A stretch of 32,000 bases of DNA from Kiritimatiella glycovorans. GTDB lineage: Bacteria; Verrucomicrobiota; Kiritimatiellia; Kiritimatiellales; Kiritimatiellaceae. The DNA lies in assembly GCF_001017655.1 (NCBI RefSeq), contig NZ_CP010904.1, positions 90,001-122,000 of the forward strand, written 5' to 3'. The translations under genes and the position numbers were made by a program. Shown piece by piece: positions 2,396 through 27,612 of this stretch; position 1 is the first letter of the stretch, and each line of letters starts with the position of its first letter. The notes below the pieces were generated by a model, which was not told the origin of the DNA, searched no databases, and saw only the letters and a list, made by a program, of their open reading frames with translations.

Positions 2396-3505
2396 TCACA
2401 CCTCTTCCGCGCCGTCCAGCAGTTCGCGCACCTTTCGCAGCAGTGCGGCGGAGGAGCACGGCTTGGAGAGAAATGCGGCATGCGCGTCGTGCTTCCTTTT
2501 ATCCGTAATCAGGTCGGCACTGTATCCGCTTACGAACAATATCGGCGTATCCGGCGCGGCGGCCCTCCGCAGCGCGTCCGCCACCTCCGCGCCGTCGTGC
2601 CTCGGCATCACCACGTCCAGTACCGCCGCCCGGATCTGCGATGCTTTCTCCGCAATGACCGCCAGGGCCTCTTCGCCGTCCCGCGCCGTGATCACCCGGT
2701 ACCCCGCGGAAAGCAGAATGTTTCCGGCCCAGTCACGAACGCCCGCATCGTCCTCGGCCAGCAGCAGCGTTTCCGTCCCGCCGCGCGATGTCTCGATCTC
2801 CCTTCCCGAACCCCTTTCGGCTTCGCCGTCCACGACCGGGAAATAAATCCTGAACGTGGTGCCCAGGCCCGGCTCGCTGTAGACATGGATGGCCCCTTCG
2901 TGCTGGCTGACGATTCCGTAGACCGTGGAAAGGCCCAGCCCGGTTCCCTTGCCCACCTCCTTGGTGGTGAAAAACGGTTCGAACACGCGGTCCAGCGTCT
3001 CGCGATCCATCCCGCAGCCCGTGTCCGTCACGCTGATACGTACATAGCGCCCCGGCCGGACATCCGTATGGTCCCGGCAGTAATGCCCGTCGATCGTCAT
3101 GTTTTCCGTTTCGATCATCAGCCGCCCGCCCGCGGGCATGGCGTCGCGGGCATTTACACACAGATTCATCAGGACCTGTTCGATCTGCGAGGGATCGACC
3201 CGTACCGTCGCATCCCTGCCGGCGCCTTTAAACCGGTACTCGATGTGCTCGCCCAGCGCCAGGTTCAGCATCCGGGAAAAGGAGCGGATCAGCTCGTCGG
3301 GGTTCACATTTTTCGGCTCCATGCGCTGGTGCCGCGTGAAGGCGAGAAGCTGACGCGTTAGCGCCGCGGCCCGCTCGCCGCCGTGCGAGCTCTCGTTCAA
3401 CGCCTCGTGCAGTTCGGGGCGATCCGCCGCGTCCTGCGCGGCGAGCTGTGCGTAGCCCATCATCGACTGCAGGATATTGTTGAAGTCGTGGGCCACGCCT
3501 CCGCC
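2396..3505 (-). CDS. Hybrid sensor histidine kinase, C-terminal part (HisKA + HATPase_c + REC); downstream half of a frameshifted gene
   Basis: Track ORF 2396..3721. Homology begins at GGVAHDFNNILQSMMGYAQL (H-box). It continues with NLCVNARDAMP (N-box), DTGCGMD (G1), GKGTGLGLSTVYG (G2), then a receiver domain (LLLAEDD, LDVVMP, FLSKP). There is no credible independent start. Confidence 0.85.
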   Translation of the reverse strand, partial: GGGVAHDFNNILQSMMGYAQLAAQDAADRPELHEALNESSHGGERAAALTRQLLAFTRHQRMEPKNVNPDELIRSFSRMLNLALGEHIEYRFKGAGRDATVRVDPSQIEQVLMNLCVNARDAMPAGGRLMIETENMTIDGHYCRDHTDVRPGRYVRISVTDTGCGMDRETLDRVFEPFFTTKEVGKGTGLGLSTVYGIVSQHEGAIHVYSEPGLGTTFRIYFPVVDGEAERGSGREIETSRGGTETLLLAEDDAGVRDWAGNILLSAGYRVITARDGEEALAVIAEKASQIRAAVLDVVMPRHDGAEVADALRRAAAPDTPILFVSGYSADLITDKRKHDAHAAFLSKPCSSAALLRKVRELLDGAEEV

Positions 3506-5007
3506 AGCCGGCCGAACGCCTCCATCTTCTGGGCCTGCTGGAGCTGGTGCTGAACTTCCAGTTCCGCCGTGATATCGCGCGCCACCTTCACGTAATGCTT
3601 CACCTCGCCCCGCATGTTCCGCACCGGGGAAATCGTCGCGTCCTCCGTGAACTCCGTACCGTCCTCGCGCCGGTTGATCATTCGTCCCTTCCACGTGCCG
3701 CCCGAACGGATCGTGTTCCACAGGTCTCTGTAAAAGGCCTCATCCTGCCGCCCGCTCTTGAGGATAGCGGGCGTCCGGCCCAGCACCTCCTCGCGCCTGT
3801 ATCCGGTCATCGACACGAACGCGGGGTTCACGTACTCGATGTTCCCCTCGGGATCCGTCATGAGCACGCCTTCGACAGACTGCTCGACCGCGGAGTAGAG
3901 GCGGGACTGCTCCTCTTCCGCCCGCCGGTGTTCGGTGATGTCCCGCGCGACGCCGCACAGGTACTGCGGACGCCCCTCCCGGTCACGGATCAGCTGGGTA
4001 TGACAGTCTAGAATCACCTTGTGACCGTCTGCCCCGATATTTACCACCTCGCCGCGCCATTCGCCGTTTTCGCACGTGCTGCGAACGATTTCCCGCTGGC
4101 TTATATGGTCCTCGTCCTCGCCGTACTCCTCAACCGTTCCGCCGACGAGATCTTCGCGCGGCACGCCGAAGAGGCGGGACTGGGCTTCATTCACATACAG
4201 GATGCGGCCGTCGAGGTCGGTAAGGGTCACCAGATCGCCGATCTCGTCGAGAATGGTCGCCTGCCGCTCCAGCTGTTCGTCCGCTTCCATACGCTCCAGC
4301 GCGAAAGCGAAGTCATTGGCGACCTCCTCGAACAGCGCCTGTACCTCGCGGTCGCCGGCGTAATGCCCGCGGACGGAAGCTCCCATGTAGCCGTAGAGGC
4401 GGTCGCCGCGCTGCAGCCGCATGCAGATGCCGCTGCGGTCACGGTGATATTCGCGTACGGGACAACCGGAACATTCCCTGCTCGGGTCTTCCTTGACCAC
4501 GGGGCCGTCCCGACGCGCGGCCTCCTCGACACACGGCGGGGTGCCCTGACGGATCTCCTCGCAGAAAGCGCGAAACGCCTCCGGATGGATTCCCGCCTGG
4601 GCCGCGGTGAGAAGCCCTCCCTCTTCATCCGTCAGCACGATCCACGCGCCCGCGTAACCCGACTCTCCCGTGAGAATATCGCACGACTGCTGGATCAGCG
4701 TGTCCCGGTCGAGTTTGTGCGTGATGATCTGGTTGATGTCGCGTATGCCCCGCAGCACGCCGTTGAGAAACTGTATGCGGGTGAGGTGATGCCTGCGCTC
4801 GCGAACGGCACGATCGGCATAGACGGAGAAGACGATCATCACCGCGATGAATAACCCCCGTACCCATAGCTCGTGCGGTTCGCGCGGAAACAGCCACAGC
4901 AAGACACCGCCCTCCCGAAAGAAATACGCGTCTACGGCCGTTTCCAGAAGCCAGTAAGCGATTATCAGCAGAGCAGCCGTGCGGAATATTTTCGTGTTGC
5001 GGCTCAT
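3460..5007 (-). CDS. Hybrid sensor histidine kinase, N-terminal part (2 TM helices, Cys-rich GAF-like domain, two PAS domains); upstream half of a frameshifted gene
   Basis: Track ORF 3460..5100. The likely start is ATG 5007 (MSRNTKIFRTAALLIIAYWLL). It has PAS S-box-like segments (ILYVNEAQSRLFG, IEYVNPAFVSMTGY) and ends QKMEAFGRLAEAWPTTS*, breaking off inside the canonical GRLAGGVAHDFNN motif. Confidence 0.85.
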   Translation of the reverse strand: MSRNTKIFRTAALLIIAYWLLETAVDAYFFREGGVLLWLFPREPHELWVRGLFIAVMIVFSVYADRAVRERRHHLTRIQFLNGVLRGIRDINQIITHKLDRDTLIQQSCDILTGESGYAGAWIVLTDEEGGLLTAAQAGIHPEAFRAFCEEIRQGTPPCVEEAARRDGPVVKEDPSRECSGCPVREYHRDRSGICMRLQRGDRLYGYMGASVRGHYAGDREVQALFEEVANDFAFALERMEADEQLERQATILDEIGDLVTLTDLDGRILYVNEAQSRLFGVPREDLVGGTVEEYGEDEDHISQREIVRSTCENGEWRGEVVNIGADGHKVILDCHTQLIRDREGRPQYLCGVARDITEHRRAEEEQSRLYSAVEQSVEGVLMTDPEGNIEYVNPAFVSMTGYRREEVLGRTPAILKSGRQDEAFYRDLWNTIRSGGTWKGRMINRREDGTEFTEDATISPVRNMRGEVKHYVKVARDITAELEVQHQLQQAQKMEAFGRLAEAWPTTSTISCSR

Positions 5008-5111
5008 GAATCCGCTCCCCCCGAAAGCGCCGCCCCCGCCGTACCCCTCCGCGGCTGGCTCCGATCGAAGTCTATTTTTTTGCACCCCCGCGACAAGCAT
5101 CGATTGGGGGG

Positions 5112-5378
5112 CAGAATCAGAGTCAGAGTAAGAATCTGAATCAGAGTCAGAATCAGAGTCAGAGTAAGAGTAAGAGAAAGAGTGAGTGGGGCAGCAGAGA
5201 CCTGAAACCTGAGTAGGACACAGGGATCATAGAATCGGGGGAGTGGGATCGCGCCTGCGACGCTCCGAGTACGCGTACGAATCATGCTTTTCCGACCTGT
5301 AGCCGAGCCCGATTACGATGGCGTCTTACTCAGGTTTCAGGTCTCAGCTTTCCCGCTCACCCTCCCCCTCTTTCCCTG
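5112..5378. repeat. Composite long-hairpin repeat element, copy A: 12 tandem hexamers, imperfect inverted arms containing a perfect 19-bp inverted repeat, and a 52-nt conserved core
   Basis: Hexamers of form NAGARW (CAGAAT/CAGAGT/AAGAGT...) run 5112-5183. GAGACCTGAAACCTGAGTA at 5197-5215 has its exact reverse complement at 5327-5345. Flanking arm sequence is also partly complementary (about 5176-5218 vs 5323-5378). The core at 5232-5283 recurs inverted at 25298-25346. Confidence 0.9.
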
Positions 5379-5390
5379 TCACATCCTTTG

Positions 5391-5418
5391 TTGCCCGGCC
5401 GAGGCATAACGATATAAT
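5391..5418 (+). promoter_or_regulatory. Candidate sigma70-type promoter for the DUF4159-MoxR operon
   Basis: TTGCCC (5391-5396), 16-nt spacer, TATAAT (5413-5418), about 46 nt upstream of ATG 5464. A GGGAGGTGG RBS lies at about 5450-5458. Confidence 0.4.
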
Positions 5419-5463: not shown

Positions 5464-6975
5464 ATGAAGACGCTTGGCCGGATTCTGTTTCCCCTGTTTG
5501 CGGCGGTTTGTGTCTGCGGCGCGGCCCAGGACGAGGACGCCTGGCTCAAGCCGCTCGGCCAGCCGCCCAAGGCGGCGCCGCGGCGCATTTCCGGCGGCGA
5601 ATCCCTGCCGCCGCTCCCGCTACCCGCCACCCCGCTCCGACGCACCGAACGGAAGCGGCAGCCCAGCCCGCCCACGCTCGTCACCAAGGTCATGTGGGGC
5701 GAGACCGCCTCGTTCCAGTTCGAGGACGGCAAGAGCATGGAGGTCGCCGACTGGAACCAGTGTCCCTCCGACGTGCAGTCGATCCTGCACAAGGCGCGCG
5801 GGCCGTTGCAGGTTCGCTACGGCTACGAGACAGCCCCGATCGCGGCGTTTCACGGCGACCCCGCCCGTACGCCCCTGCTGCTGTTCAGCGGTTCGCGTTC
5901 GATCCGGTTCGACGAGGATCAGCTCCGCAAGTTGCGCGCGTATGTCCTGCGCGGCGGCATGATCGTGGCCGATAACATCGCCGGTTCGCCCTTTTTCTAT
6001 CAGTCGTTCCGCGAAGCGATGCTCAAGGCGTTTCCCGAACTCGCCGTCCGCGAGATTCCGGACGACCACCCGGTCTACCACATGCTCGCGGAAGTCCGGC
6101 ACGTACATTACCCGCGCAACCGGGAGTCGAACGAACCCTACCTTGAGGGCATGTACGTTGGCTCGCGCATCGGCGTGCTGATCTCCCGATACGGACTCGG
6201 CTGCGGCTGGGACAATCACCACGTCCCGTTCATCGACGAGGCCGTGTTCTACGACGTGCCCTCTGCGAGTCAGATCGGGATCAACCTTATCGCCTACGCC
6301 GTCGGATACGCCGAAACCGCGCGCCGCGAGGCGGAGCCGGAGTGGTTCGGATCGCTCGACGAGCAGGACCCGACCGACCAGTTCGTCTTCGCCCAGCTCC
6401 GCCATGAGGGCGCCTGGAACGTCCATCCCGGCGGGGCGGCGGCCCTGCTGCGCCGGCTGGAACGGGATACCTCGATGCGCGTCAGCCTGAAACGGGTCGC
6501 CGTCGACCCCGGAAAAGACGATCTCTCCGGCTATACCTTCCTCTACCTGACCGGTCTGGACGATTTCCGGTGGAGCGATACGGAGGCGGCGCGCCTGCGC
6601 GGATTCCTGAATTCCTCCGGCACGCTGCTGATCAACAACGGGCTCGGACTCTCGACCTTCGACCGCGCCGTCCGCCGCGAGCTGCAGAAGGTCCTGCCGG
6701 GCGCGGAACTGGTCGAGATCCCCGCCGGTCATCCGGTCTACCACGCCGTCTTCCCGGTGCGCTCGGTGCGCTACACCCCGGCGGCGACTCCCGACCGCGA
6801 GGCGGCGCCGAAGCTTTACGGCGTCCGGCTGCACGGCGACCTGCGGGTCATCTACAGCCCCTACGATATCGAGGCGGGCTGGCAGGGCGGCGACCACCCT
6901 CTCGCGAAAGCACTCGAACCGCAGTCGGCCATGCAGCTCGGCGTCAATATTGCGATGTACGCCATGACGCACTAG
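5464..6975 (+). CDS. Secreted protein with two tandem DUF4159-like domains
   Basis: Signal peptide MKTLGRILFPLFAAVCVCGAAQ. Two similar halves each carry the DUF4159-type pattern (LLLFSGSRSIRFDEDQLRKLRAYVLRGGMIVADN...DDHPVYH and FLYLTGLDDFRWSDTEAARLRGFLNSSGTLLINN...AGHPVYH). The position upstream of moxR is typical. Confidence 0.8.
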   Translation: MKTLGRILFPLFAAVCVCGAAQDEDAWLKPLGQPPKAAPRRISGGESLPPLPLPATPLRRTERKRQPSPPTLVTKVMWGETASFQFEDGKSMEVADWNQCPSDVQSILHKARGPLQVRYGYETAPIAAFHGDPARTPLLLFSGSRSIRFDEDQLRKLRAYVLRGGMIVADNIAGSPFFYQSFREAMLKAFPELAVREIPDDHPVYHMLAEVRHVHYPRNRESNEPYLEGMYVGSRIGVLISRYGLGCGWDNHHVPFIDEAVFYDVPSASQIGINLIAYAVGYAETARREAEPEWFGSLDEQDPTDQFVFAQLRHEGAWNVHPGGAAALLRRLERDTSMRVSLKRVAVDPGKDDLSGYTFLYLTGLDDFRWSDTEAARLRGFLNSSGTLLINNGLGLSTFDRAVRRELQKVLPGAELVEIPAGHPVYHAVFPVRSVRYTPAATPDREAAPKLYGVRLHGDLRVIYSPYDIEAGWQGGDHPLAKALEPQSAMQLGVNIAMYAMTH

Positions 6976-6990
6976 AAAGGAACGGAACCC

Positions 6991-7980
6991 ATGTCGGATA
7001 AAGCGATCGAACAACTGGCGGCAGCCCGCGAGAAAATCCTCGACAGCGTCGGTCGCGTCATCATCGGCCAGCGTGCCGTGCTGCATGAAATCCTCGTGGC
7101 CCTGTTTTCCCGCGGGCACTGCCTGATGATCGGCGTGCCGGGACTGGCGAAGACGCTCATGGTGCGCACGCTCTCCGACAGCCTGCGGCTCCAGGGACGC
7201 CGCATCCAGTTCACGCCGGATCTGATGCCCTCCGACATCACCGGCACGGATCTGCTGGAGGAGGACGCCTCCGGACGACGCGCCTTCCGGTTCGAGCGCG
7301 GCCCCATCTTCACCAATCTGCTGCTCGCCGACGAGATTAACCGCACGCCGCCCAAGACGCAGGCCGCGCTGCTCGAGGCGATGCAGGAGCGGCGCGTGAC
7401 CGCCTCCGGCGAAACCTACTCGCTGCCCGAACCGTTCATGGTCATGGCCACGCAGAATCCGATCGAGCAGGAGGGGACCTACCCCCTGCCCGAGGCGCAG
7501 CTCGACCGGTTCATGTTCTGCATCCATGTCGACTACCCCGCGGAGGCGGAGGAACAGAAAATCCTGATGGACACCACCCGCGACGTCATGCAGGAAGCGC
7601 AGCCGGTCCTCGACGCCGGGGAAGTGATCGAGGTCCAGCGGCTCGTCCGCGAGGTCCCGGTGAGCGATCACGTGGCCCTCTACGCGGCGCGGCTCGCGCG
7701 GGCGACACGCCCGCAGGAAAAAGATGCCCCCGAATTTATCCGCCGCTGGGTCCGCTGGGGCTCCGGACCGCGGGCGGGACAGAACCTGCTGCTGGCGGCG
7801 AAAGTCAACGCCCTCTTCGAAAACCGCGGCAGCGTCTCCTGCGCCGACGTCCGCCGCTTCGCGCACCCCGTGCTCCGCCACCGTATGTTCTGCAATTTCT
7901 CCGCCGCCAGCGAGGGCGTGGAGGTGGACGACATCGTCGACAAGCTGATCGAAGCGGTCAAGGAACCGGAGTACGGGTGA
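6991..7980 (+). CDS. moxR: MoxR-family AAA+ ATPase
   Basis: 329 aa. Walker A GVPGLAKT, Walker B LLADEINR, and TPPKTQAALLEAMQERRVT, PEPFMVMATQNPIEQEGTYPLPEAQLDRF: full-length AAA_3/MoxR signature. Confidence 0.95.
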   Translation: MSDKAIEQLAAAREKILDSVGRVIIGQRAVLHEILVALFSRGHCLMIGVPGLAKTLMVRTLSDSLRLQGRRIQFTPDLMPSDITGTDLLEEDASGRRAFRFERGPIFTNLLLADEINRTPPKTQAALLEAMQERRVTASGETYSLPEPFMVMATQNPIEQEGTYPLPEAQLDRFMFCIHVDYPAEAEEQKILMDTTRDVMQEAQPVLDAGEVIEVQRLVREVPVSDHVALYAARLARATRPQEKDAPEFIRRWVRWGSGPRAGQNLLLAAKVNALFENRGSVSCADVRRFAHPVLRHRMFCNFSAASEGVEVDDIVDKLIEAVKEPEYG

Positions 7981-7985
7981 GACCG

Positions 7986-8043
7986 GAGACCTGAGTTTGA
8001 AACCTGAAACCTGAAACCTGAAACCTGAGTTTGAAACCTGAAC
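7986..8043. repeat. Heptanucleotide microsatellite: (GAAACCT)4 + GAGTTT + GAAACCT in the moxR-DUF58 spacer
   Basis: GAGACCTGAGTTTGAAACCTGAAACCTGAAACCTGAAACCTGAGTTTGAAACCTGAA. It shares the GAGACCTGA / GAAACCTGAGT motif with the arms of the 5197-5345 inverted repeat. Confidence 0.9.
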
Positions 8044-8063
8044 CCCTTCCCGTCACTGCCCCG

Positions 8064-8951: not shown

Positions 8952-10999
8952 GCGGCATCTTTTTCGCCAACCCGCTCTTCCTTCAGCTCCTGCCGCTGGC
9001 CGCGCTGCCGGTCATCTTCCACTTCCTGCTCCGCCTGCGCAAAAAGCCCCATCCGTTTCCCACGCTGATGTTTTTCCGGCGGATCGACCCCCGCCTGAGT
9101 TCGCGCAAAAAGATCCGCGAATGGCTGATTCTGCTTCTGCGCACGCTCCTGATCCTGCTCCTCCTGCTCGCCCTCGCCCGCCCGCGTTGGCAGCGCGCCG
9201 GGGGCGGAGGGCGGCTCGCCACCGTGCTCGTACTCGACAATTCGGCGTCGATGACCCGCGAAGACGCGGAAGGCATGCCCCTCATCGAACGCGCCGCAGA
9301 GGCGGCCCGCGCGTTGCTGCGGGAGCAGCGTCCCGGCGATACGGCCGCCCTCGTGCTGCTGGTGGCGGATCCCGCCGCGAAACGGCCGGACGGACTCACG
9401 GCCGATACCGGCAGCCTGCTGGATGCGCTCGACGATCTCGAGGCGGTGGAGTGCGCCGGGCGTCCGGCGCAGGCGCTGACCACTGCGCGCCGGATCCTGG
9501 ACGAGTCGGAGGCGCCCGCGGCGGCCGTGCACGTATTCACCGATCTCCAGCGCAACGAATGGGGGCGCCCTGCGAGCCCGCCGGGCCTCCGCGAAGGCAC
9601 CACCGTCCGGGTCCATCAGCTCAGACCCGTCCGCGACCGGGACGCCAATGTCCACTTCCGCGAACTGCGGCTGCCGCCGATGCGGATTCCCGCGGGACGC
9701 ACATTCTACGCCGAGGCCGTCCTCGCCAACAACGGCGGAGCGGCGGCGGACATCCTGCTCAATACGGCCGGCGGCGGAACGGAGGCCGCGAGCCGTGAAC
9801 TCACCCTGATGCCGGGGGCGGAGGCCCGCACCCCCATCGCGCTGAGGGCCGAGGCCCCGGGGCTGCACGCGCGCCGGATGTGGATCGAGGGCGACGCCTT
9901 CAGCGCGGATAACCACGCGGGCCTCGCCTTTCGCACCCTCCCGCGCCAGCAGGTCCGTTTCGCCGGAACACGGACGGCCTACGGCGCCCTTCCGCATGCC
10001 CTCTCCCCGGCCGGCGGCGAGCTGACCGGAATCGAAACGCACTTCGAGTCCGGCGGGGATGAGGGAGCGGACGGCGCGGAGCGCACCGCGCTTCACGTCG
10101 CCACGTACGCGGAGTTCATCCGCCGTTCCGCGTCGCTGAGCGAAACCGTGGAACGGGGCGGGCGGCTCCTGCTGCTGCCGGCCGTTACCGGGCCCGGCGT
10201 CGCGGAACGGCCCGGCCGGCTCGATCTCGCCCTCGACGCTCCCGTGAGCTGGGAGGAGGGGATGCGCCTGCATGCGGCCGAACCGGCCGCGGCGATTTTC
10301 GACGGCCTGCGGGGCGCGGACGGCGAGGTCTCGCTCGGGGAGGCGAGGGTCATGCGGGTGATGCCGGTCCGCGGCGGCGAGGGCTGGACGACGCTGCTGC
10401 GGATCGAGACCGGTTCGCCCGTGCTCGCGTACCGGCGGTTCGGGCGCGGCATGATCTATGCCTCGGGTGCGGCCTTCGATCCCGGGTGGACTACGCTGCC
10501 GCTTAAAGGCCCGTTCGTCGTCCTCGCCCAGCACCTCGCGCTCGAAAGCGGCGACGGCGAAGAGCCCGCCTTCCAGTGGGTGGCCGGCGAGCCGCCGCCC
10601 GCCCCGGCGGCGGCGGAGGACGAAGCGCTCAGCGTGACCGCCGTCGAAGGCCCGCCCCTGCAGTGGCGCGGACCGCCCGCGGAGCGTCCGGTCCTCTGCC
10701 GCGCCGGGGTGTATAAACTGGCCGCGGGATCCGAAACCTGGTATGCGGGCGTGCAGGGCGACGGCGCGGAAGGGGCGCAGGACTATATGGACGATTCGGT
10801 CGTGCCGGCGATGGAAGGCTGGCGCTACCGGGTCGCGCCGCTGGCCGCCCCCCGTGAGCTGGTCGACGCCGTCGGCCGGTTCCGCGAGGCGTTCGACCCG
10901 TTCCCGTGGATCATCCTTGCCGCGCTCGCCGTCCTGTTCGCGGAAGGCGCGCTCGCGAACCGCCCGCCGTTGCGGGCCGCGGGGAGGGCGGAACCATGA
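8948..10999 (+). CDS. BatA-domain (N-terminal double-TM) vWA membrane protein
   Basis: N-terminus FANPLFLQLLPLAALPVIFHFLLRLRKKPHPFPTLMFF matches the aerotolerance BatA N-terminal domain. The MIDAS-like segment is VLVLDNSASM. The start overlaps the DUF58 stop (ATGA). Confidence 0.85.
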   Translation: MSGIFFANPLFLQLLPLAALPVIFHFLLRLRKKPHPFPTLMFFRRIDPRLSSRKKIREWLILLLRTLLILLLLLALARPRWQRAGGGGRLATVLVLDNSASMTREDAEGMPLIERAAEAARALLREQRPGDTAALVLLVADPAAKRPDGLTADTGSLLDALDDLEAVECAGRPAQALTTARRILDESEAPAAAVHVFTDLQRNEWGRPASPPGLREGTTVRVHQLRPVRDRDANVHFRELRLPPMRIPAGRTFYAEAVLANNGGAAADILLNTAGGGTEAASRELTLMPGAEARTPIALRAEAPGLHARRMWIEGDAFSADNHAGLAFRTLPRQQVRFAGTRTAYGALPHALSPAGGELTGIETHFESGGDEGADGAERTALHVATYAEFIRRSASLSETVERGGRLLLLPAVTGPGVAERPGRLDLALDAPVSWEEGMRLHAAEPAAAIFDGLRGADGEVSLGEARVMRVMPVRGGEGWTTLLRIETGSPVLAYRRFGRGMIYASGAAFDPGWTTLPLKGPFVVLAQHLALESGDGEEPAFQWVAGEPPPAPAAAEDEALSVTAVEGPPLQWRGPPAERPVLCRAGVYKLAAGSETWYAGVQGDGAEGAQDYMDDSVVPAMEGWRYRVAPLAAPRELVDAVGRFREAFDPFPWIILAALAVLFAEGALANRPPLRAAGRAEP

Positions 11000-13182
11000 T
11001 CGACTGGCGCCCCCATCTCGACCCCCTGCTGTGCGGCGTGGTGCTGCTCGCCGTGGCGCTGGCGGCGTGGATGCTCTACCTCCGCATCAAGGCCGGACCG
11101 CGCGGGAGCGCCCCCTTCGCGCTGTTCCTGCCCAAGGTGCTCGCCGCCGCTTTTCTCGTGCTCGCGCTGCTGGAACCGGTGATCCAGCGCGAGCGCCGCG
11201 AGGAGGGAAGCGACCGCGTGCTCGTGCTGGTCGACCGGTCCGGTTCGATGCGGGTGGCCGACGGCGAGATGTCGCGCTACGGGCGCGCGCGCTCCACCGC
11301 GGAACGCCTCCGCGCCATGCTGCCCGCAGACATCGGACTGGAACTGCAGAGCTTCGATACGGGTATCCATGAAGACCTGCCCGATCCCGCCGGCCCGGAC
11401 GAAGACGCCGGAACCGACCTCGGCGCATGCCTGCTCGAACTCGGCAAACGCGATCTCTCCGACTGCGCGGCCCTGCTGCTGATCACCGACGGCGGCGATA
11501 CCGTGATCGAGGATCCCGCGCTGCCGCCGGTTCCGCTCTCCGTGCTCGGGGTCGGTTCGGTGACCGGCCGCTGGAACGACGTGCGCATCGAAGCCTTCCG
11601 CCTGCCCGGCACCGTCGAAGAGGGCACCGGGTTCGAAGCGACCGTCGATGTGACCGCCTCCAGCGGCTCGCTGTCCTTCGCCCGCCGCCTCGGCCGCGTC
11701 ACCCTGCGTCTCGAGCGCCGGACGCCCGACGGGTCGTGGGAAGCCGTGAAGAGACGCAGCATCGACCTCGGCGAACGAAGCGTTCGCGAGCGATTCCGTC
11801 TCGAGGCCGGAGACGGCGGCGTCCACCGCTACCGGGCCGTGCTGCCGGAGGTCGAGGGCGAGATCTCCGCGCTGAACAACGCCCGCGAAGGCGCACTCGA
11901 AGTGCGCACGCGGTCTTCGCAGGTGCTGTACTTCACGCGCCGGCTCGGAACGGCCTACAAGATGGTCCGCGGGGAACTCGGCCGCGATCCCGGGATCGCG
12001 TTCACCGGGATGTTCCGCACCATCGGCGAGCGCTTCACGGTCGTCGGCGAGGACGTCGACGAGACCGGCGCGCTGGAGAAAGGCTTCCCGGAATCCGTCG
12101 AGGCCCTGCGCCGTTACGACACCGTGATCCTCGGCGCCTTCCCGGCGGACGAGTGGAGTCCGGCTCAGATCGAGGCCTTGCGCGCCTATGTCGAACAGGG
12201 CGGCACGGCCGTGTTTCTGGCCGGAACGGAATCGTACGGCGCGCGCGGCTACCCCGGCACCCCGCTCGAGGACCTGCTGCCCTGGCGGATCGCCGCGGGC
12301 GATGCGGAAATGCTCACCGGCGCGTTTCCGGTCACCGTTCCGCCGCAGACCCGCTCGCATCCGGCCGTGCGGGGGCTCGCCGACGCGCTTGCGGAAACTT
12401 CGGCGACGGTCGAAAGCCTCAGTCCGGCCGGCACGCTCAAACCCGGCGCCGAGGCACTCCTGTACGCGTCGACCGGCGAAGGCCGGATCCCGCTGGTCGC
12501 GTGGCAGGCCTTCGGGCGGGGCAAGGTGCTCGCCTTTCAGTCCAACACCTTCTGGAAGTGGTCGCGGAGGAACGAGGCACTCCGCGAGGCCTACGGGACC
12601 TTCTGGCGACAGACGGCACGCTGGCTCGCGGGCGCGGAGGAGAGCGGCACGCGTTTTTCGTATCGGTGGGACCGTGAGCACTACGCACCCGGTGACCGCG
12701 CGCAGCTCGAAATCCGCTCGCTCGGCGCATCGTCGTCCGGCCGCGTCGAGTTCAGCGCCGTACTTGAGCGCGACGGTGAACTCGAACAGGTCTCCGTCCG
12801 GGAGGTCGAAGGGGTGGAGGATACGTGGCGGGCCGGCCTGCGTTTCCGCCGGCGCGGCCATTATCTCTTCACCTTGACCGCGAATGAAAACGGGCGCACC
12901 GTGGAGACGTACGAAAAGCGGCTGCCCGTGTTCCCGAAGGTCGGCGAGGGTGCGCGGCTGGAACTCGACGAGGCCTTTCTCCGGCGGCTCGCGCAGCAGG
13001 GCGGCGGGGCGTACGGACACGAGTCGCGGCAGGATGAATTCCTGCAGAAATTCGCCCGCGGGATGTGGCGCAGGACCGTGACGATCGAGGAACCGCTCAT
13101 GGAGAGCCGCTATGCGGTCGGCGCCTTTCTACTGGTGCTGGTGATCGAATGGATCATCCGGCGCAGAAGAAACCTGTTCTGA
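10996..13182 (+). CDS. Membrane protein with vWA-like and glutamine-amidotransferase-like (DUF1355-type) domains and a C-terminal TM anchor
   Basis: ATG 10996 overlaps the upstream stop (ATGA). N-terminal TMs are followed by VLVLVDRSGSM. Central segment YDTVILGAFPADEWSPAQIEALRAYVEQGGTAVFLAG...GRGKVLAFQSNTFWKW is GATase1-like. The C-terminus is AVGAFLLVLVIEWIIRRRRNLF. Confidence 0.8.
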   Translation: MIDWRPHLDPLLCGVVLLAVALAAWMLYLRIKAGPRGSAPFALFLPKVLAAAFLVLALLEPVIQRERREEGSDRVLVLVDRSGSMRVADGEMSRYGRARSTAERLRAMLPADIGLELQSFDTGIHEDLPDPAGPDEDAGTDLGACLLELGKRDLSDCAALLLITDGGDTVIEDPALPPVPLSVLGVGSVTGRWNDVRIEAFRLPGTVEEGTGFEATVDVTASSGSLSFARRLGRVTLRLERRTPDGSWEAVKRRSIDLGERSVRERFRLEAGDGGVHRYRAVLPEVEGEISALNNAREGALEVRTRSSQVLYFTRRLGTAYKMVRGELGRDPGIAFTGMFRTIGERFTVVGEDVDETGALEKGFPESVEALRRYDTVILGAFPADEWSPAQIEALRAYVEQGGTAVFLAGTESYGARGYPGTPLEDLLPWRIAAGDAEMLTGAFPVTVPPQTRSHPAVRGLADALAETSATVESLSPAGTLKPGAEALLYASTGEGRIPLVAWQAFGRGKVLAFQSNTFWKWSRRNEALREAYGTFWRQTARWLAGAEESGTRFSYRWDREHYAPGDRAQLEIRSLGASSSGRVEFSAVLERDGELEQVSVREVEGVEDTWRAGLRFRRRGHYLFTLTANENGRTVETYEKRLPVFPKVGEGARLELDEAFLRRLAQQGGGAYGHESRQDEFLQKFARGMWRRTVTIEEPLMESRYAVGAFLLVLVIEWIIRRRRNLF

Positions 13183-13198: not shown

Positions 13199-14257
13199 AT
13201 GAACCACAGAGCCAGTCCTTGCCTTCCGCCGCTGCGGACCACCGCGGCCGTTCTCCTGGCGGGGCTGTTCTCCGCGGCCGCGCTTGAGGCGGGCGTGGTG
13301 GAGTTCTCCGACGGGTCGGCGATCACGGGCGAAGTGCGGTTCGCGTCGGCGGACGTCAAACTTCACTACCGCGGCAAAAAGCTCATCCGCATCCCTGCGG
13401 ACGAAATCGCCGGGATTCGACTGAGACCCGAACGGGAGAGCCTGGAGCGCAAATGGATGATGCCCACCGCGGGGCAGACCCGGAAGGAGCGCTGGGGCGA
13501 GCCGTTTCCGGTCCGTCACCTCAAGGCCGACCTGCTGCTCGCCGGAGGCCAGCGCCGCGAGGGTCATCTGTACACGACCCCGCTTTACGTGCTCGGACCC
13601 GAAGGCGCGGAAAAGGTGGTGCTGCCGGCCAAACAGCGCGGCGAGGAGGGTCAGACGCTGGCCGAACTGGTCTACCCCGTCGCGGTGCGCACGGATCGGG
13701 AGGTTGCTGCCGAAGCGGCGGAACGCACGTTCCGGCTGCCGGAGCCGCTCCGGGGCGCGGAACCGGTGGTGCTGCAGCGCGACACGCTGACCCGCCTGCC
13801 GGTCAGGCGCGAGGGCGATGCCTGGCGCGTTACCGCCCTGCCGGGAGAAAAGCTGTTCGCCGCGGTGCGCCGGGACGGGACGGTGACCGTCGGCTGGCCG
13901 GAGCGCCGCGATCCGGCCCTCTTTGAGCGCATGAACGCGGCGCTGGCGGAAGCGAAGGATTTCTTCGACCGGCGCGAACTGCTCGGAGTGGTCCGCGGCG
14001 GCGAAGATTCGCTCTACGCGCTCTGCCTGCTCTCGCGCGAAGGCGCCACCACCCTCAAACGCGAAAAGAACCGCCCCTGGCGCGTCGGAATCTGGCGCTG
14101 GAAGGAGGACGGCGAAGACGGCCGGATCATGCTCGCCGGCCGGGGGTTCTTCTTCCGCGGAATCGAAACGCGCGGCGTACGCCCCGAGGTCCGCCTCTCG
14201 CCGGAGCTTCATGCGGTGATGGCCGGCGGCGGAGGAGGGGACGGCACGAATGAGTGA
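13199..14257 (+). CDS. Hypothetical secreted protein (352 aa), operon member
   Basis: Signal-like N-terminus LRTTAAVLLAGLFSAAALEAG. No family recognised. Called coding from operon context: 16-nt gap upstream and an 8-nt overlap with the next gene. Confidence 0.65.
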   Translation: MNHRASPCLPPLRTTAAVLLAGLFSAAALEAGVVEFSDGSAITGEVRFASADVKLHYRGKKLIRIPADEIAGIRLRPERESLERKWMMPTAGQTRKERWGEPFPVRHLKADLLLAGGQRREGHLYTTPLYVLGPEGAEKVVLPAKQRGEEGQTLAELVYPVAVRTDREVAAEAAERTFRLPEPLRGAEPVVLQRDTLTRLPVRREGDAWRVTALPGEKLFAAVRRDGTVTVGWPERRDPALFERMNAALAEAKDFFDRRELLGVVRGGEDSLYALCLLSREGATTLKREKNRPWRVGIWRWKEDGEDGRIMLAGRGFFFRGIETRGVRPEVRLSPELHAVMAGGGGGDGTNE

Positions 14258-18321: not shown

Positions 18322-19656
18322 ATGCTCGAATCGCTGTCATCTTCCCTGCAGAACGTCTTCCGCAGCCTGCGCGGTTACGGGAAACTGAACGAGAAGAACG
18401 TGAAGGACGCCCTTCGCGAGGTGCGCATGGCGCTGCTCGAGGCGGACGTCCATTTCAGGGTGGCCAAGGACTTTACGAAGCAGGTCCGCGACCGCTGTCT
18501 CGGGCAGGATGTGCTCGAGAGCGTGACGCCCGGCCAGCAGATCGTGAAGCGCGTGCACGAGGAGATGACCGAACTCTTCGGCGGGGCGCATACCGACTTC
18601 AATCTTGAAGACCGCCCGGCGGGCGTAATGCTGCTGGGCCTCCACGGCTCGGGAAAGACCACCACGGCCGGCAAACTCGCGCACTACTGGATGAGCAGCG
18701 GAAAATCGGTGGTGCTCGCCGCCTGCGATATCCGCAGACCCGCCGCCGTGGAACAGCTCTCCACACTGGCGAAGCAGGAGGGCGCGGCCTGCGTCGCGCC
18801 GCGCGAGGGAGATACCGTGCCGGACGTCGCGGCGCGCGCCCGCAGGGAGGCCTCGGAACAGCAGGCCGATATCGTGATCTACGACACCGGCGGGCGGTTT
18901 CAGATCGATGAAGACCTCGTACACGAACTCGAGGAGATCCGGGAGGCGGTGCAGCCCGCCGACACGGTTCTCGTGCTCGACGCCGCGATCGGACAGGAAT
19001 CGGTCGAAGTGGCCCGCAGATTCCACGAGGCCGTGGGGCTGACGGGGCTCATTCTTACCAAGCTGGACGGCGACGCGCGCGGCGGCGCGGCGCTTTCGGT
19101 CCATTCGATGACCGGGTGTCCGATCCTGATGACCGGTACGGGCGAGCGCCCGGAAGACCTCGAACCGTTCTACCCGGAACGCATGGCCTCGCGCATCCTC
19201 GGCATGGGCGACGTGGTTTCGCTGGTGGAGAAGGCCCAGCAGAACATCGACGAGGACGACGCGCGGCGCATGCAGGAGAAGCTGGCGAAAAACACCTTCG
19301 ACCTGCAGGACTTCCACGACCAGATGCAGCAGATGAAGAAGATGGGGCCGATGGAGAACATCCTCAAGATGCTTCCGGGGGCGGGCGAACTGCCGGAACA
19401 GGTCAAGAGTCAGCTCGGCGGCGCGGGCGACAACATGAAACGCCAGGAAGCGATCATTCGCTCCATGACCCCGAAAGAGCGGCACAAGCCCTCGATCATC
19501 AACGCCTCCCGCCGTCGCCGGATCGCGCGCGGCAGCGGCGTTCGGATGAGCGAGGTCAACGAGCTGTTGAAGAACTTCGACCGCACCCGTAAAATGACCA
19601 GACAGATGAAAAAGATGCGAAAAAGATTGCCCGGAATCCCGAACTTCCCTACATAA
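18322..19656 (+). CDS. ffh: Signal recognition particle protein Ffh
   Basis: 444 aa. Motifs LREVRMALLEADV, GLHGSGKTTTAGKLA, DTGGR, TKLDGDARGG, and a Met-rich M domain (MQQMKKMGPMENILKMLPG). Confidence 0.97.
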   Translation: MLESLSSSLQNVFRSLRGYGKLNEKNVKDALREVRMALLEADVHFRVAKDFTKQVRDRCLGQDVLESVTPGQQIVKRVHEEMTELFGGAHTDFNLEDRPAGVMLLGLHGSGKTTTAGKLAHYWMSSGKSVVLAACDIRRPAAVEQLSTLAKQEGAACVAPREGDTVPDVAARARREASEQQADIVIYDTGGRFQIDEDLVHELEEIREAVQPADTVLVLDAAIGQESVEVARRFHEAVGLTGLILTKLDGDARGGAALSVHSMTGCPILMTGTGERPEDLEPFYPERMASRILGMGDVVSLVEKAQQNIDEDDARRMQEKLAKNTFDLQDFHDQMQQMKKMGPMENILKMLPGAGELPEQVKSQLGGAGDNMKRQEAIIRSMTPKERHKPSIINASRRRRIARGSGVRMSEVNELLKNFDRTRKMTRQMKKMRKRLPGIPNFPT

Positions 19657-23293: not shown

Positions 23294-23529
23294 AGACTCC
23301 CGGTATGAACGTGGATCTCCGGCGCGGCGCGTCCGCGGCGTTGCCCGGAAGCGACCGGCTCTGATGTTCTCTCACAAAGGCGCCAGGGCACAAAGCTATT
23401 CATCGAGTCGTCCAGTACGAATCGTGTTCCCTCAACCCATTTCCAGGCTCTTCATGTCCGCGGTGTTCTTCGCGGTGAAGTTTGTGTAGCATGGAGAGAC
23501 TTTTCACAACACGAGACCGGAGCGCTGCC

Positions 23530-25068
23530 ATGAAAATCGTAAACACCGCCACCATGAAGGAACTCGACCGCCGGACCATCGAGGAGGCGGGCGTTTCCGG
23601 AGAGGAACTCATGGAACGGGCGGGAACGGGTATCGCGCGCGTCGCGGAGGAGTGGCGTATCCTCGGCGGCCTCTCCGCCATGAGCGCCCGGCTGCTGGCC
23701 GGCGGCGGCAACAACGGGGGCGATGCCTTCGTCGCCGCGCGAGTGTTGCGGGGAATGGACTGGGAGGTCGAGGTCTGGGCCACCAGACCCGCGGGCGACT
23801 ACGGCGGTGAGACGGCCGCCCACCTCCGGCGGATGCTCGACGCCGGCGTCCCGCTGCGGGAACTGACCCGCGAGGAGGACTGGGACGAGGCGGAACGAAC
23901 GGCGGAACCGGTCGATCTGCTGATCGACGGATTGCTGGGGACAGGCACTAAAGGCGCGGCGCGCGGACTCCCCGCCCGCGCGATCCGCTACCTCAACGCG
24001 CAGCGCCGCACCACCATGGTCCTCGCCATCGACATCCCCTCCGGCATGAACGGCGATACGGGGGAGGCGGAGGGCGTCGCCGTGGTCGCGGACCTCACCG
24101 TGACCATGGCCCTGCCCAAGGCGGGGCTTCTGCGTCCGCGGGCGGCGGCGCACACGGGCCGGCTCGACGTGGTCGATATCGGCATCCCCGCGTCGTATGT
24201 CGACGAGGCCGCGGGCGAGGAGGGTCTGGAATTTGTCGGGCGCGAAGATATCGCGTCCGTGTTTCCCCCGCCCCGGCCGCGGGCGGCCCAGAAGGGGGAT
24301 TTCGGTAAGCTGCTGCTGGTCGGGGGCGCGGTGGGCATGAGCGGGGCGCTGGTGATGGCCGGACGCGCGGCGCTGCGCGGCGGGGCGGGGCTCGTCACGC
24401 TGCGCGTGCCGCCGGAGGCCTACACGGCCGCCGCAGCCGCGGCGCCGGAATTGATGATTCATCCCTCTCCCGAAGGCGGCGACTGGGGGCTGGGCCTCTA
24501 CGACGTGCTGCTGATCGGTCCCGGGCTGGGTCGGTCCGAAGAATCCCGGCTGCAGGTTCATCACCTGCTCGCGGAGCGGACGGGGACGGCCGTGGTCGAT
24601 GCCGACGCGCTTCACGTCCTGGCCGGCGAGCCGGAGCGCATCGACGGGACCCGCGCGGCGACCGTGATCACCCCCCACCCCGGCGAGGCCGCGAAGCTGC
24701 TCGGATGCGCGCCGGCTGACATCCAGCAGGACCGCCGCGCCGCCGCGCGCGAGCTGGCCGGACGCAGCGGGGCGGTGTGCATTCTCAAGGGCGCCGGCAC
24801 CCTCATCGCGCGCCCCGACGGCGCCCTGGCCGTGAACATGAACGGCAATCCCGGCATGGCGACGGGCGGGAGCGGCGACGTGCTGGCCGGTCTGCTCGCG
24901 GCGCTGCTCGGACAGGGACTCGACCCCTGGGACGCCGCGCGCGCGGGGGTTTTTCTCCACGGCCGGGCGGGAGATCTCGCGGCGGCCGGACAGGGCGAGA
25001 TCTCCGCGACTGCCCCGGACCTGATCGAGGAACTCCCCGCCGCACTGCGCGAGTTCACGCCGAGGTGA
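23530..25068 (+). CDS. nnr: Bifunctional NAD(P)H-hydrate repair enzyme Nnr (epimerase + ADP-dependent dehydratase)
   Basis: N-terminal YjeF_N (GGGNNGGDAFVAAR, DGLLGTG). C-terminal carbohydrate-kinase-like domain (KGDFGKLLLVGG, VVDADAL, ITPHPGEAAKLL, GNPGMATGGSGDVLAG). The start is taken at MKIVNTATMKELD. Confidence 0.92.
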   Translation: MKIVNTATMKELDRRTIEEAGVSGEELMERAGTGIARVAEEWRILGGLSAMSARLLAGGGNNGGDAFVAARVLRGMDWEVEVWATRPAGDYGGETAAHLRRMLDAGVPLRELTREEDWDEAERTAEPVDLLIDGLLGTGTKGAARGLPARAIRYLNAQRRTTMVLAIDIPSGMNGDTGEAEGVAVVADLTVTMALPKAGLLRPRAAAHTGRLDVVDIGIPASYVDEAAGEEGLEFVGREDIASVFPPPRPRAAQKGDFGKLLLVGGAVGMSGALVMAGRAALRGGAGLVTLRVPPEAYTAAAAAAPELMIHPSPEGGDWGLGLYDVLLIGPGLGRSEESRLQVHHLLAERTGTAVVDADALHVLAGEPERIDGTRAATVITPHPGEAAKLLGCAPADIQQDRRAAARELAGRSGAVCILKGAGTLIARPDGALAVNMNGNPGMATGGSGDVLAGLLAALLGQGLDPWDAARAGVFLHGRAGDLAAAGQGEISATAPDLIEELPAALREFTPR

Positions 25069-25069
25069 G

Positions 25070-26216
25070 TTACGCGGAATCGTGTCGAGCTTGTTCCACT
25101 CGACCCTGTCCAGGGACGCACGGCGTACCGCAGGCAAACGTCGCGACTCTTTCCGCCTCGTAAAGACGGAATTCAGAAGAGGTCTCTCGCGGAGGCGCGG
25201 AGAACGCAGAGGGGATGAAGATGAAAAAAGTTCTTCGTAGATTTTTATGGTGAGCGGCGGCAAGTCCGCTCGCGTCACATCGTACTCGTACTCGTACTCG
25301 TACGCGTACTCGGAGCGCCGAAGGCGCGATCCCCCTCCCCCGATTCGAGGAACTCGAGTACGAGTACCGCTTCGCTGAGTACGAGTACGAATTACGTTCT
25401 CTGTGAATCCCGATTTCGACTTCGGTCCGGAGTTCGAGATCCCATCCGTGTTTTGGGGATGTCCCGAATCCTGTTGAAACTCGTTGGCGGTCTCGGTCTT
25501 CATTTCGATGTAGTTCCTTGTCATTCACTTGTCCAGTCCCTGTTCGGCAGTTCGCTTCGCTCTCTGCCTGGGGGTGAGGCGTCGTGGAGTGGAGCCCGTT
25601 CCCGCCGGAGGCGGGATGGCCCGGAGGGCCAAGGGCGGAGCGGAGCGACGCCTCAACAGCTTCCGATGGCCAGCCCAGGGATTTCAAAAGCACCGGGATC
25701 TGACGATAGCCTTTGATTCGACGGAACCCTTTCTCGGCCCTCAGAAGCGAATAGGCCAGCCAGCGTTCCGCCTGATCCGTCTCTGCGCGCCAACGCTTCA
25801 CCCGCCCGATTTTTGCGCGTGTGTTTCGGAACGGGTTCTCGATGCAGTTTGTGTTCGTCAACGTGGTGTGTAGAGTGGACGGCGCATTCAGCTTGTGAAC
25901 CGTAATGAGCTCCTCACCGGCCTCGTGCAGGGATTCCAGGGCCTTGTGGCTGTGCCGGCTCAGAAAGCGTTCCAGATCGGCGAGTGCTTCACGTCCGGCT
26001 TCTTCGCCTTCCACGGAGCGGAGACGCTTGAAAAGGTCGCTCACGCTGCCGTGATGACGCCTGGAGAGACAACGCTTAATATTTCGTTCCTTATGCACCA
26101 GGCATCGTTGAATGCGCGCTCGCGGAAAATGCTTCAAGACGCTGTTATGAAGTGCCCGAGAACCGTCGAGAACCGCCAACGGATCGCCCTCGAACTCAAG
26201 ACCGCGGTGGACAAGC
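25070..26216 (-). pseudogene. IS256-family transposase, C-terminal part, same frame as the N-terminal part; reads through the IS end into flanking repeat DNA
   Basis: Continues LVHRGLEFEGDPLAVLDGSRALHNSVLKHFPRARIQRCLVHKERN...NCIENPFRNTRAKIGRVKRW...RIKGYRQ. Family similarity fades near 25650, but there is no in-frame stop until 25070. Confidence 0.8.
25282..25388. repeat. Composite hairpin repeat element, copy B (inverted relative to copy A): GTACTC hexamer arm, conserved core, complementary GAGTAC hexamer arm
   Basis: (GTACTC)3-GTACGC-GTACTC runs 25282-25311. GAGTAC pairs lie at 25356-25367 and 25377-25388. The core at 25298-25346 matches the reverse complement of 5232-5283 with 3 mismatches in 49 nt (manual alignment). 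Confidence 0.9.
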
Positions 26217-26224
26217 CGGTCGAG

Positions 26225-26369
26225 CCAGCGATTCTCATTATGGCTTCACCCTTTTCGGTCGGGGTGGCACCCGACCCTCCCAGTGCCCGAAAATGCGTCG
26301 GATATCGACTCGGGAGGGACGGCTGCCACGCCGTCCGCGGTCGGAATGCGGCCATAATGAGAACTGCTG
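26225..26369. mobile_element. 145-bp MITE-like insertion inside the transposase gene, with terminal inverted repeats of about 19 bp and an 8-bp target-site duplication
   Basis: Direct repeat CGGTCGAG at 26217-26224 and 26370-26377. Termini are CCAGCGATTCTCATTATGGC ... GCCATAATGAGAACTGCTG. The interior has GC-rich hairpins (GGTCGGG..CCCGACC, CCCTCCC..GGGAGGG, GACGGC..GCCGTC). Deleting the insert plus one repeat restores ...DALLDR-LVHRGLEF... Confidence 0.75.
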
Positions 26370-27007
26370 CGGTCGAGCAATGCGTCACACACTTCTGTCG
26401 ATTCCTGTGCGCCTATTTCAAAATCCAGCATAACTTTGCGGCCGTCCAGCGTAATGCCCAGCCCCACAATGGCGCTGAGATCCTCGGACAGTACAATGCC
26501 GTCCAGCAGCATGCAGAAGAACCTCTCGGACTTCAGGTCGCGGTCACGGAGCTTCTGTATGCGCTGTCGGCCCTCGACAATCCAGGCGCGGGAAACCCTG
26601 CTGCGTCCGGGCGCTGAATCGGGATACAAGGTTTTCTGATCACGTGAACTGACTCCGGCAGCTGTGGCACGCAAGATACGGCCACGAAGGTCGTCGGCCC
26701 TGTTGACCGCGTCGTAACTTTTAAGCCTGACCTCCTTCGATGTGTCTGCCTCATGGCGACGTACACGCGGCTTGCGGATCTCCTCATCAATACCGTCAAT
26801 TCGAAGTCCTACGCGGGTTCCGCCGGCACGTCGGCAGCCTCTGTCTCCTGCCGGCTTGTAGGCCGGACCACACAGTTCTGTGACCTCTTCAGCCAGAATA
26901 TCGGCGATCAGGGTTCGCATTTCACCACGCAGCCAGTCACGGAAAACATCTCCTGCTGCAGACGGTTCAACTTGTCCAAGGGCTTCAAGGACGCTATTGT
27001 CACTCAT
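26246..27007 (-). pseudogene. IS256-family transposase, N-terminal part, terminated by a stop codon inside the nested insert
   Basis: ATG 27007 with an AAAGGAGAC RBS. Contains FFCMLLDGIVLSEDLSAIVGLGITLDGRKVMLDFEIGAQESTEVCDALLDR, the IS256-type DDE N-terminal region. Homology stops at 26378, and the remaining residues are insert-encoded. Confidence 0.85.
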
Positions 27008-27101
27008 GGCGGTCTCCTTTCGGGTTGGTTTGCCCCGAGCGTCCAACATGGACGCTCAGGAGACCGCCTTCAAGTTTCAACAGTCAACGGGACACTTCCC
27101 C

Positions 27102-27612
27102 GGTGACGCTGGGGGCGTGGTACGCGCAGGGGACGCGGGACGCCTACGACGAGCTGAACCTGTACGCGGAATACGGCGTCGCATGGAAGGGGTTCGAGTT
27201 TTACGCGGGCTACACGCGGCTCGAGTTCATCATCGATGACGCCTTCGACCACGAATTCGGCGCCGGCGTCGCGAGCCCGTCCTGGGGGCCGTGGACCTTG
27301 GGCGTAGATTACGTCTACTCCACCGAGGCCGACGGTGCGTTCGTCGAGGCCGGTCTGGAGGGGGCCTTCCCGCTGCTGGAAGAACGGGTCGTCCTCGTGC
27401 CCGCCCTCGTCGAGGGGGTCGACTTCGGATACGCCAGTCCGGAGTATGACGGGCCGAATCATCTGGAAGCACGGCTCACGGCAATCGTGCCGGTCTCCGA
27501 TGACGTGGAATTGAGCGCCTACCTCGCCCATTCCTGGGGGCAGGGCGACGTCGATCGCGACGGGGGCAAAGACCTGACCTGGGGCGGCATGGGCGCGGCG
27601 TGGACGTTCTGA
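27102..27612 (+). pseudogene. Outer-membrane beta-barrel (porin-like, possibly TorF/Gcw_chp-type) gene, 5'-truncated by the IS
   Basis: Alternating amphipathic strands (LNLYAEYGVAWKGFEFYAGYTRLEF, WTLGVDYVYS, VELSAYLAHSW) and a C-terminal GMGAAWTF ending in Phe. No signal peptide or start. The part of the track ORF before 27102 is IS terminal sequence. Confidence 0.6.

Follow-up and report, generated by a model that had tools for sequence, protein, structure and literature searches.

A hairpin-forming intergenic repeat of Kiritimatiella glycovorans: a possible composite of dispersed tandem arrays and a low-copy 50-nt unit

Introduction

What occupies the 456-bp spacer between a PAS/GAF histidine kinase gene and the divergently oriented DUF4159-MoxR-DUF58-BatA operon of Kiritimatiella glycovorans, and does it serve the genes on either side? 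The spacer lies in a 32-kb stretch of the genome that was analysed as a whole (the window; 32,000 nucleotides). The DUF4159 protein encoded beside it is 100% identical to the K. glycovorans protein. The initial annotation had argued that it is not ordinary spacer DNA, and had described a long hairpin with microsatellite arms around a conserved core that recurs in a distant part of the window. In the following, the hairpin at the operon is referred to as copy A and its distant counterpart as copy B.

Here, we analyse both copies and compare the window with four relatives that carry the same operon at 60–67% protein identity (67% for the DUF4159 protein of the closest relative), with public sequence collections, and with known repeat systems. 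The spacer is indeed taken up by a repeated, hairpin-forming element. This feature is real and restricted to the K. glycovorans lineage, and it has the look of selfish or neutral repeat DNA. We tentatively favour the view that copy A is a lineage-specific composite, in which dispersed tandem-repeat arrays and a low-copy 50-nt unit would have been brought together by slippage, inverted duplication and ectopic copying, without serving a dedicated function.

Results

Copy A combines a hexamer array, a long inverted repeat and a core

Copy A opens with a head-to-tail hexamer array, continues into a long inverted repeat and holds the core in its loop (Table 1); these repeats, their boundaries, orientations and positions were read directly from the window. 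The run of 12 hexamers in the initial annotation was recovered by TRF as an array of period 6 (5112–5176/5119–5183; 10.8 copies, 81–84% matches), and the pattern CAGAGTCAGAGT, which describes this array, has 6 matches compared to 0.07 expected. The 19-bp inverted repeat proved to be perfect, as claimed (100% identical), and is part of arms of 41 nt each that are 85% complementary (35 Watson-Crick pairs, 6 mismatches). Hairpin A is the longest and strongest local inverted repeat within the 32-kb window. Arm complementarity had been followed out to about position 5378; it stands as far as 5363, whereas outside the 41-nt arms Watson-Crick pairs make up only ~40% of the ungapped positions. A longer helix predicted for the minus strand depends on G.U pairing of an AG-rich stretch with a CU-rich one, which is a compositional effect. 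The arms themselves are composed of GAGACC/TGAAACC/TGAGTA units with the hexamers outside the inverted repeat, so that the description "microsatellite arms" applies strictly to copy B and only loosely to copy A.

Table 1. Positions of the repeat features and their neighbours in the window
Feature	Position	Strand	Details
Hexamer array	5112–5183	+	12 units CAGAGT/CAGAAT/AAGAGT; one-sided, beyond the inverted repeat
Left arm, hairpin A	5179–5219	+	includes the perfect 19-mer GAGACCTGAAACCTGAGTA at 5197–5215
ATCAT direct repeat, 5 bp	5226–5230, again 5281–5285	+	brackets core A
Core copy A	5229–5283	−	strict 49-nt match 5232–5280; covariance model R1, 84.2 bits
Core A central stem-loop, 21 nt, bulged	5246–5266	−	GGAGCGUC-GCA-GGCGC-GA-UCC; G.U pair, GNA triloop; from alignment and folds
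Right arm, hairpin A	5323–5363	+	complement of the perfect 19-mer at 5327–5345
Sigma-70-like promoter, DUF4159/MoxR operon	5391–5418	+	TTGCCC-16-TATAAT, 10/12; just outside copy A
Related tandem array	7978–8045	+	TGAGACC, GGAGACC, TGAGTT, then TGAAACC x4.4; fills the MoxR/DUF58 spacer
Left arm, hairpin B	25280–25312	+	(TCGTAC)x5.5, continuing into the core
Core copy B	25295–25349	+	strict match 25298–25346; covariance model R1, 84.5 bits
Core B central stem-loop	25312–25332	+	GGAGCGCC-GAA-GGCGC-GA-TCC
Right arm, hairpin B	25353–25398	+	(GTACGA)n broken by CGCTTCGCT
IS256-family element (context only)	25460–27094	−	35-nt terminal inverted repeats 25460–25494/27060–27094

The direct repeat that brackets core A could be a target duplication or microhomology. 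Because a comparable 5-bp repeat is found at 4.1% of random places when the same latitude is allowed, it amounts to a weak hint of insertion; no target duplication flanks copy B or either whole hairpin. Inner pairing of 5226–5239 with 5308–5319, which involves the 3' tail of core A, is marginal (p about 0.04). The candidate promoter annotated right behind the element was confirmed at 10 of 12 consensus positions; it is the only good sigma-70 match near copy A, is directed away from the element, and begins 12 bp beyond its end.

On the other side of the spacer, the histidine kinase gene carries a 1-nt deletion within its H-box (minus strand, 3500–3525; ORFs 3460–5100 and 2396–3721). The H-box reads GCGGAGGCGTGGCC where homologues imply GCGGGAGGCGTGGCC, GRLAGGVAHDFNN being interrupted right before the phospho-accepting histidine. 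This frameshift reflects either a pseudogene or a sequencing error.

The core occurs twice, in opposite orientation and in unrelated surroundings

The initial annotation had reported that the core recurs in inverted orientation 20 kb away with three mismatches in 49 nt. This was borne out: the minus strand of core A matches the plus strand of core B at 46 of 49 positions, the match can be extended to 54 nt at 91% identity, and 100 shuffles yielded 0 matches. Each copy consists of a 14-nt tail, a 21-nt bulged stem-loop (GGAGCGYC-GNA-GGCGC-GA-TCC) and a 14-nt C-rich tail. The homology has sharp boundaries, and the copies lie in unrelated intergenic regions. Between them are the Bat/MoxR operon, ffh, rpsP, trmD, rplS, rnhB, yraN and nnr, all on the plus strand and housekeeping only; we therefore discarded the idea that the two copies are the ends of a mobile island.

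Copy B is a 119-nt hairpin (25280–25398) with arms of (TCGTAC)n and (GTACGA)n, situated 212 nt downstream of nnr and ~60 bp from an IS256-family element. Its core begins with 15 nt (TCGTACGCGTACTCG) that are part of the stem. Its arms align as a single inverted copy plus a 9-nt insert, which reads AGCGAAGCG on the minus strand and holds a GCGAAGC mini-hairpin. The minus strand of the right arm also yields a weak core-like match (25339–25393; R1 18.8 bits, E about 0.002).

The neighbouring IS256-family element has a transposase frameshifted into two frames and lacks a target duplication. Copy B is not a terminus of this element, which ends 60 bp away and shares no similarity with core or arms. 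The IS element truncates an outer-membrane beta-barrel gene (27100–27612; homologues of 228–247 aa), whose first 60 or so codons are absent throughout the window; this missing start points to an IS-linked deletion or rearrangement, and for the same reason we rejected the idea that copy B serves this gene as a leader. An AT-rich patch just upstream of hairpin B (25215–25260) contains a short ORF that has its own ribosome-binding site (MKMKKVLRRFLW, then stop). The ORF resembles the beginning of a signal peptide and may be the remnant of a disrupted gene.

Such surroundings bring to mind a rearrangement scar, in which the cores would be inverted repeats at the end points of an inversion, or of an IS-associated rearrangement, of the 20-kb block, and would not belong to any repeat family. 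The inverted copies 20 kb apart are consistent with this, as are the proximity of copy B to an IS element that lacks a target duplication and truncates a gene, synteny with the relatives that ends exactly at copy A, a cumulative GC skew that reverses within the block, and the fact that no collection searched held a further copy. We nevertheless consider a scar very unlikely. The synteny breaks carry little meaning, since the relatives are too distant (60–67% protein identity), and a scar leaves unexplained why each copy has its own hairpin of different tandem repeats around it. Cumulative GC skew runs down to ~9–10 kb, up to ~25–26 kb and down again; its right turn lies near copy B and the IS element, but its left turn, near 9–10 kb, does not coincide with copy A.

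The arm units recur in other intergenic DNA of the window

We determined whether the repeat units are peculiar to the hairpins by pattern counts on both strands. The array in the MoxR-DUF58 spacer (Table 1) has 15 identical bases in common with an arm of copy A. The pattern CTGAAACCTGA (TGAAACC/GAGACC; one mismatch allowed) has 8 matches at three sites, on both strands, compared to 0.3 expected, and these sites are the two arms of copy A and the MoxR-DUF58 spacer (7978–8045). Similarly, TCGTACTCGTAC (TCGTAC) has 6 matches at three sites, again on both strands, compared to 0.07 expected, one of them inside core A and outside any stem. Within the window, every array of period 4–9 and ≥4 copies is intergenic.

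Two further observations concern genes near these repeats. The MoxR stop codon is the first TGA of the array in the spacer 7978–8063, and the likely DUF58 start at 8064 is preceded by no Shine-Dalgarno sequence. Long spurious reading frames cross hairpins A and B (23452–25524, 25070–26179 and 5004–5285, all on the minus strand) and have translations such as YEYEYEY, RVRVRVR and LTLTLTL, a trap for gene callers in a GC-rich genome.

The core is absent from relatives and public collections, and a distant relative carries arrays of its own

Absence elsewhere was likewise observed directly. The syntenic spacer of the four relatives does not contain the core, and the gene upstream of the operon differs there. 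When the window and five relative loci were scanned with a covariance model built from the core, the scan returned two copies only, plus the weak match in the arm of copy B. Exact searches with core 21-mers against genomes (one per species), JGI metagenomes and IMG/VR gave only chance matches with unrelated flanks, and neither the plasmid nor the phage collection matched the loop by blastn. Across the relatives and collections covered, no further copy was found, which answers to part of what the initial annotation had named as evidence against its own proposal. The initial annotation had not recognised the element as REP/BIME, ERIC, a CRISPR array or an Rfam family, and it is none of these. 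Rfam 15 returned 0 matches at gathering thresholds; in E-value mode, sub-threshold generic hairpin noise was obtained, with MIR2118, a miRNA-hairpin model, as the best match (28.7 bits against a cut-off of 85).

A distant relative (L011; 1.25-Mb contig) likewise has intergenic tandem arrays, made of unrelated units. These comprise (AATGACG)n at 1531, with its complement at 9930, just upstream of the DUF4159 gene; (GGGACAAAA)n at 9846; arrays of a 9-mer at 6840 and, in the MoxR-DUF58 spacer, at 13069; and (TTCACGT)x8 at 14146, between DUF58 and BatA, which stops 4 nt short of the BatA start codon. Those at 9846–9956, 13069–13114 and 14146–14203 occupy the same Bat-operon spacers (pre-DUF4159, MoxR-DUF58 and DUF58-BatA). 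Hairpins with tandem-repeat arms are present in L011 at 610–697 and 7745–7856, and comparable arrays or hairpins were not found in the other three relatives (~21 kb each).

Other repeats of L011 were seen alongside. When rotated, its TTCACGT unit (CGTTTCA) is one base off the complement of the window's TGAAACC. A REPIN-like element at 19035–19169 contains two inverted GTAGCGCAGGTTTCCAAACCTGC... copies in a hairpin with 41-nt arms that are 93% complementary; it has a GTAG leader, which the window's element does not. A 47-nt dispersed direct repeat (3420–3466 and 14032–14078; 87% identical) ends in a small hairpin, GGACTGCGCCAGTCC, and one of its copies directly follows the DUF58 gene.

Tandem arrays in Bat-operon spacers of both the window (7978–8045) and L011 would suit a DNA-level regulatory spacer or contingency locus, in which gain or loss of hexamers, or cruciform extrusion, tunes the kinase gene and the MoxR operon, and so would an element that fills the 456-bp divergent region and stops 12 bp before a good −35/−10 match. 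This is improbable in our view, given that copy B lies outside promoter regions, 212 nt after nnr and next to the IS element, that a period of six is out of step with the helical repeat, and that the kinase gene is itself frameshifted.

Folding of the core and arm mismatches give no RNA-level signal

Whole elements fold far better than shuffled sequences on either strand (copy A, z = −5.3 and −6.2; copy B, z = −3.8 and −3.7), as could be expected of a structured RNA. Such a small RNA or leader would present the conserved 21-nt GNA-loop stem at the tip of a long double-stranded hairpin, undergo processing by RNase III or a protein, and regulate the kinase gene or the DUF4159/MoxR operon. On the minus strand, core A is directed towards the kinase gene. 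A regulatory device of this kind is known from Haemophilus, in which a 5'-UTR hairpin beside a tandem repeat is cut by RNase III (PMC12721329). Moreover, both substitutions inside the 21-nt stem-loop are structure-neutral on the A(−)/B(+) strand only, one turning a C-G into a U.G pair and the other affecting the middle base of the GNA loop. Structure-neutral substitutions are what selection on structure would be expected to produce, but in two copies they are an anecdote that proves nothing.

The core alone, however, folds no better than shuffles (z = +0.04 to +1.5 as RNA and +0.07 to +1.6 as DNA). Transition mismatches in the arms of copy A would give 3 G.U pairs in a plus-strand transcript and 1 in a minus-strand transcript; the arm mismatches favour neither strand and hence provide no RNA-level signal. 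We found no promoter or terminator common to copies A and B, nor a promoter or intrinsic terminator on the relevant strand, and the best promoter matches of both neighbour genes lie outside the element and are directed away from it. Together with the lack of an Rfam family and of conservation in any relative compared, these data make a structured RNA unlikely. If copy A acts at all, it would, on our preferred reading, do so at the DNA level.

The initial annotation had taken a conserved core between differing but self-complementary arms as the signature of a structured element. As evidence for an RNA, this argument did not hold up: it draws on two copies, the core by itself is no more stable than shuffled sequence, the arms have no strand bias, and the arm units of each copy are not private but recur in other intergenic DNA.

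Further candidates were rejected. A coding frame through the core (SYAYSERRRRDP...) would render 2 of 3 substitutions synonymous, but it lacks a start codon in copy A and is closed by stops in either copy. Dipeptide repeats could be encoded by the hexamers, yet no frame is conserved. For a sigma-54 promoter, the GG-N10-GC motif is present in core A but destroyed in core B, and neither a tRNA-like T-arm, nor a CRISPR repeat, nor an intrinsic terminator fits the core.

Discussion

Copy A may be best understood as a composite of dispersed tandem repeats and a low-copy unit, although we hold this reading with less than full conviction. Consistent with it, the copies lie in unrelated intergenic regions with only housekeeping genes between them, and the arm units are dispersed on both strands, with L011 behaving alike through other units. 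The absence of an RNA signal, of an Rfam family, and of copies in relatives and public collections fits as well, and the genome of K. glycovorans is transposase-rich (75; PMC5148204).

We infer both the copying mechanism and the way in which the arms were built. Tandem-repeat families of period 6–7 recur across several intergenic spacers in either orientation, and two arrays of one family that meet head to head would yield hairpin arms. A transposition-like event or templated repair would have spread the ~50-nt unit, so that it came to lie in opposite orientations at no fewer than two unrelated intergenic positions. The arms would be of local making, with replication slippage multiplying their units; the left arm of copy B could be an expansion of the TCGTAC/GCGTAC units already at the 5' end of the 50-nt unit. 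Template-switch inverted duplication would palindromise the flanks, and the right arm of copy B may be such an inverted copy with its 9-nt insert. The element presumably has no dedicated cellular function: it would persist by virtue of harmless positions, between divergent promoters (copy A) and downstream of a gene (copy B), and any effects on neighbouring genes would be a by-product.

Several points argue against the composite reading. Only two copies are known, which makes "family" and "mobility" extrapolations. The sole insertion signature is the 5-bp repeat at core A (~4% chance), with none at copy B, and the window has no candidate transposase for such a unit. If the species-genome collection included the rest of K. 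glycovorans, the copy number is very low and fits a mobile family poorly. In addition, the same 21-nt stem-loop lies near the tip of a long stem in both copies, and its substitutions are structure-neutral on one strand only.

If the composite reading is true, the value of the locus is descriptive: a phylum that has received little study, and that comprises one cultured halophile beside many uncultured relatives, would join the short list of bacteria in which dispersed tandem-repeat families and tiny nested repeats colonise intergenic DNA. We know of no explanation so far for the origin of such repeats in cyanobacteria, and two independent lineages sharing the habit would permit a comparative attack on common enzymes, missing mismatch repair or SbcCD, and array transcription. 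For practical purposes, assembly errors, length polymorphism and rearrangement are likely at these hairpins and arrays, which should not be annotated as genes despite their long spurious reading frames. On present evidence, the locus reveals no new regulatory RNA, defence system or mobile system.

Among known systems, REP elements are imperfect palindromes of 20–40 nt, led by GTAG or GTGG, that number in the tens to hundreds per genome and lie outside genes. RAYTs are Y1/HUH transposases, and REPs are known targets of IS elements. Copies A and B are similar in being extragenic, in containing a small imperfect palindrome and in pairing inverted partners into a long hairpin; copy B, like a REPIN, holds a weak inverted second unit (18.8 bits) and abuts an IS element. 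Unlike in REPs, there is no GTAG or GTGG leader, the 21-nt stem-loop being preceded by GTAC-TC with GTAC 2 nt before the stem. Two copies occur within the 32 kb, and the species-genome collection gave no other exact match. REPINs, the hairpin-forming REP doublets, are mobilised together with REP elements by RAYT transposases (PMC3116915). None of the window's genes is a RAYT gene. REPIN arms are conserved around a variable loop, whereas here the conserved sequence is found in the loop or close to it, and the arms of one copy bear no relation to those of the other.

MITEs have terminal inverted repeats conserved among copies and a target-site duplication at each copy. The present elements are likewise small, non-coding, intergenic and hairpin-forming, with a possible 5-bp duplication at core A. 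In contrast to MITEs, their arms differ fully between copies, the two ends of the core (TCGTACG... and ...CCGATTC) lack complementarity to each other, and there is neither a parent IS nor any similarity to the adjoining IS256-like element. A looser parallel is offered by palindromic microsatellite elements of organelle genomes, such as those of the (A)n/(T)n type in Fusarium mitochondria (PMC7218506). Those elements resemble ours in being intergenic microsatellite palindromes that are optional between relatives and proposed to be mobile, but they belong to eukaryotic organelles, consist of mononucleotide runs and have no conserved central unit (PMC7218506). A CRISPR array would show identical repeats at regular intervals, with unique spacers of similar length in between; the units of copy A run head to tail without spacers, and the cores are 20 kb apart.

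The closest comparison is with cyanobacteria, in which Elhai and colleagues are said to have described, in 2008, heptamer arrays (STRR) with nested small dispersed repeats (SDR). These systems reportedly consist of few short units, which are found in either orientation across many intergenic regions and have a tiny unit nested among them. It is this combination, of few short units, intergenic tandem arrays, both orientations and a nested unit, that leads us to read copy A as an STRR-like composite. In the window and in L011 alike, specific 6–9-nt units stand in tandem at several intergenic sites in both orientations. In the window, a very small unit with a stem-loop of its own is embedded in arrays or hairpins; this nesting was seen twice, in n = 2 copies that both keep the structure but whose core has no thermodynamic excess. 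Narrow lineage restriction is a further common trait. The differences are the Kiritimatiellota host, unrelated unit sequences, a unit of ~50 nt compared to 21–27 nt, and the presence of two copies. To our knowledge, CAGAGT, TGAAACC and TCGTAC are not among the cyanobacterial units (STRR1–3 heptamers, SDR1–8).

A bolder proposal, which we regard as doubtful, is that the Kiritimatiellota possess their own counterpart of STRR/SDR, in which hexamer-to-nonamer families colonise spacers and the ~50-nt GNA-hairpin element is truly mobile through a single-stranded DNA or RNA intermediate, perhaps with an HUH-type enzyme, inserting into arrays or seeding them. Were this true, it would be the first such system outside cyanobacteria. 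As an analogy, the resemblance between copy A and STRR/SDR is one of way of working, not of membership in a sequence family.
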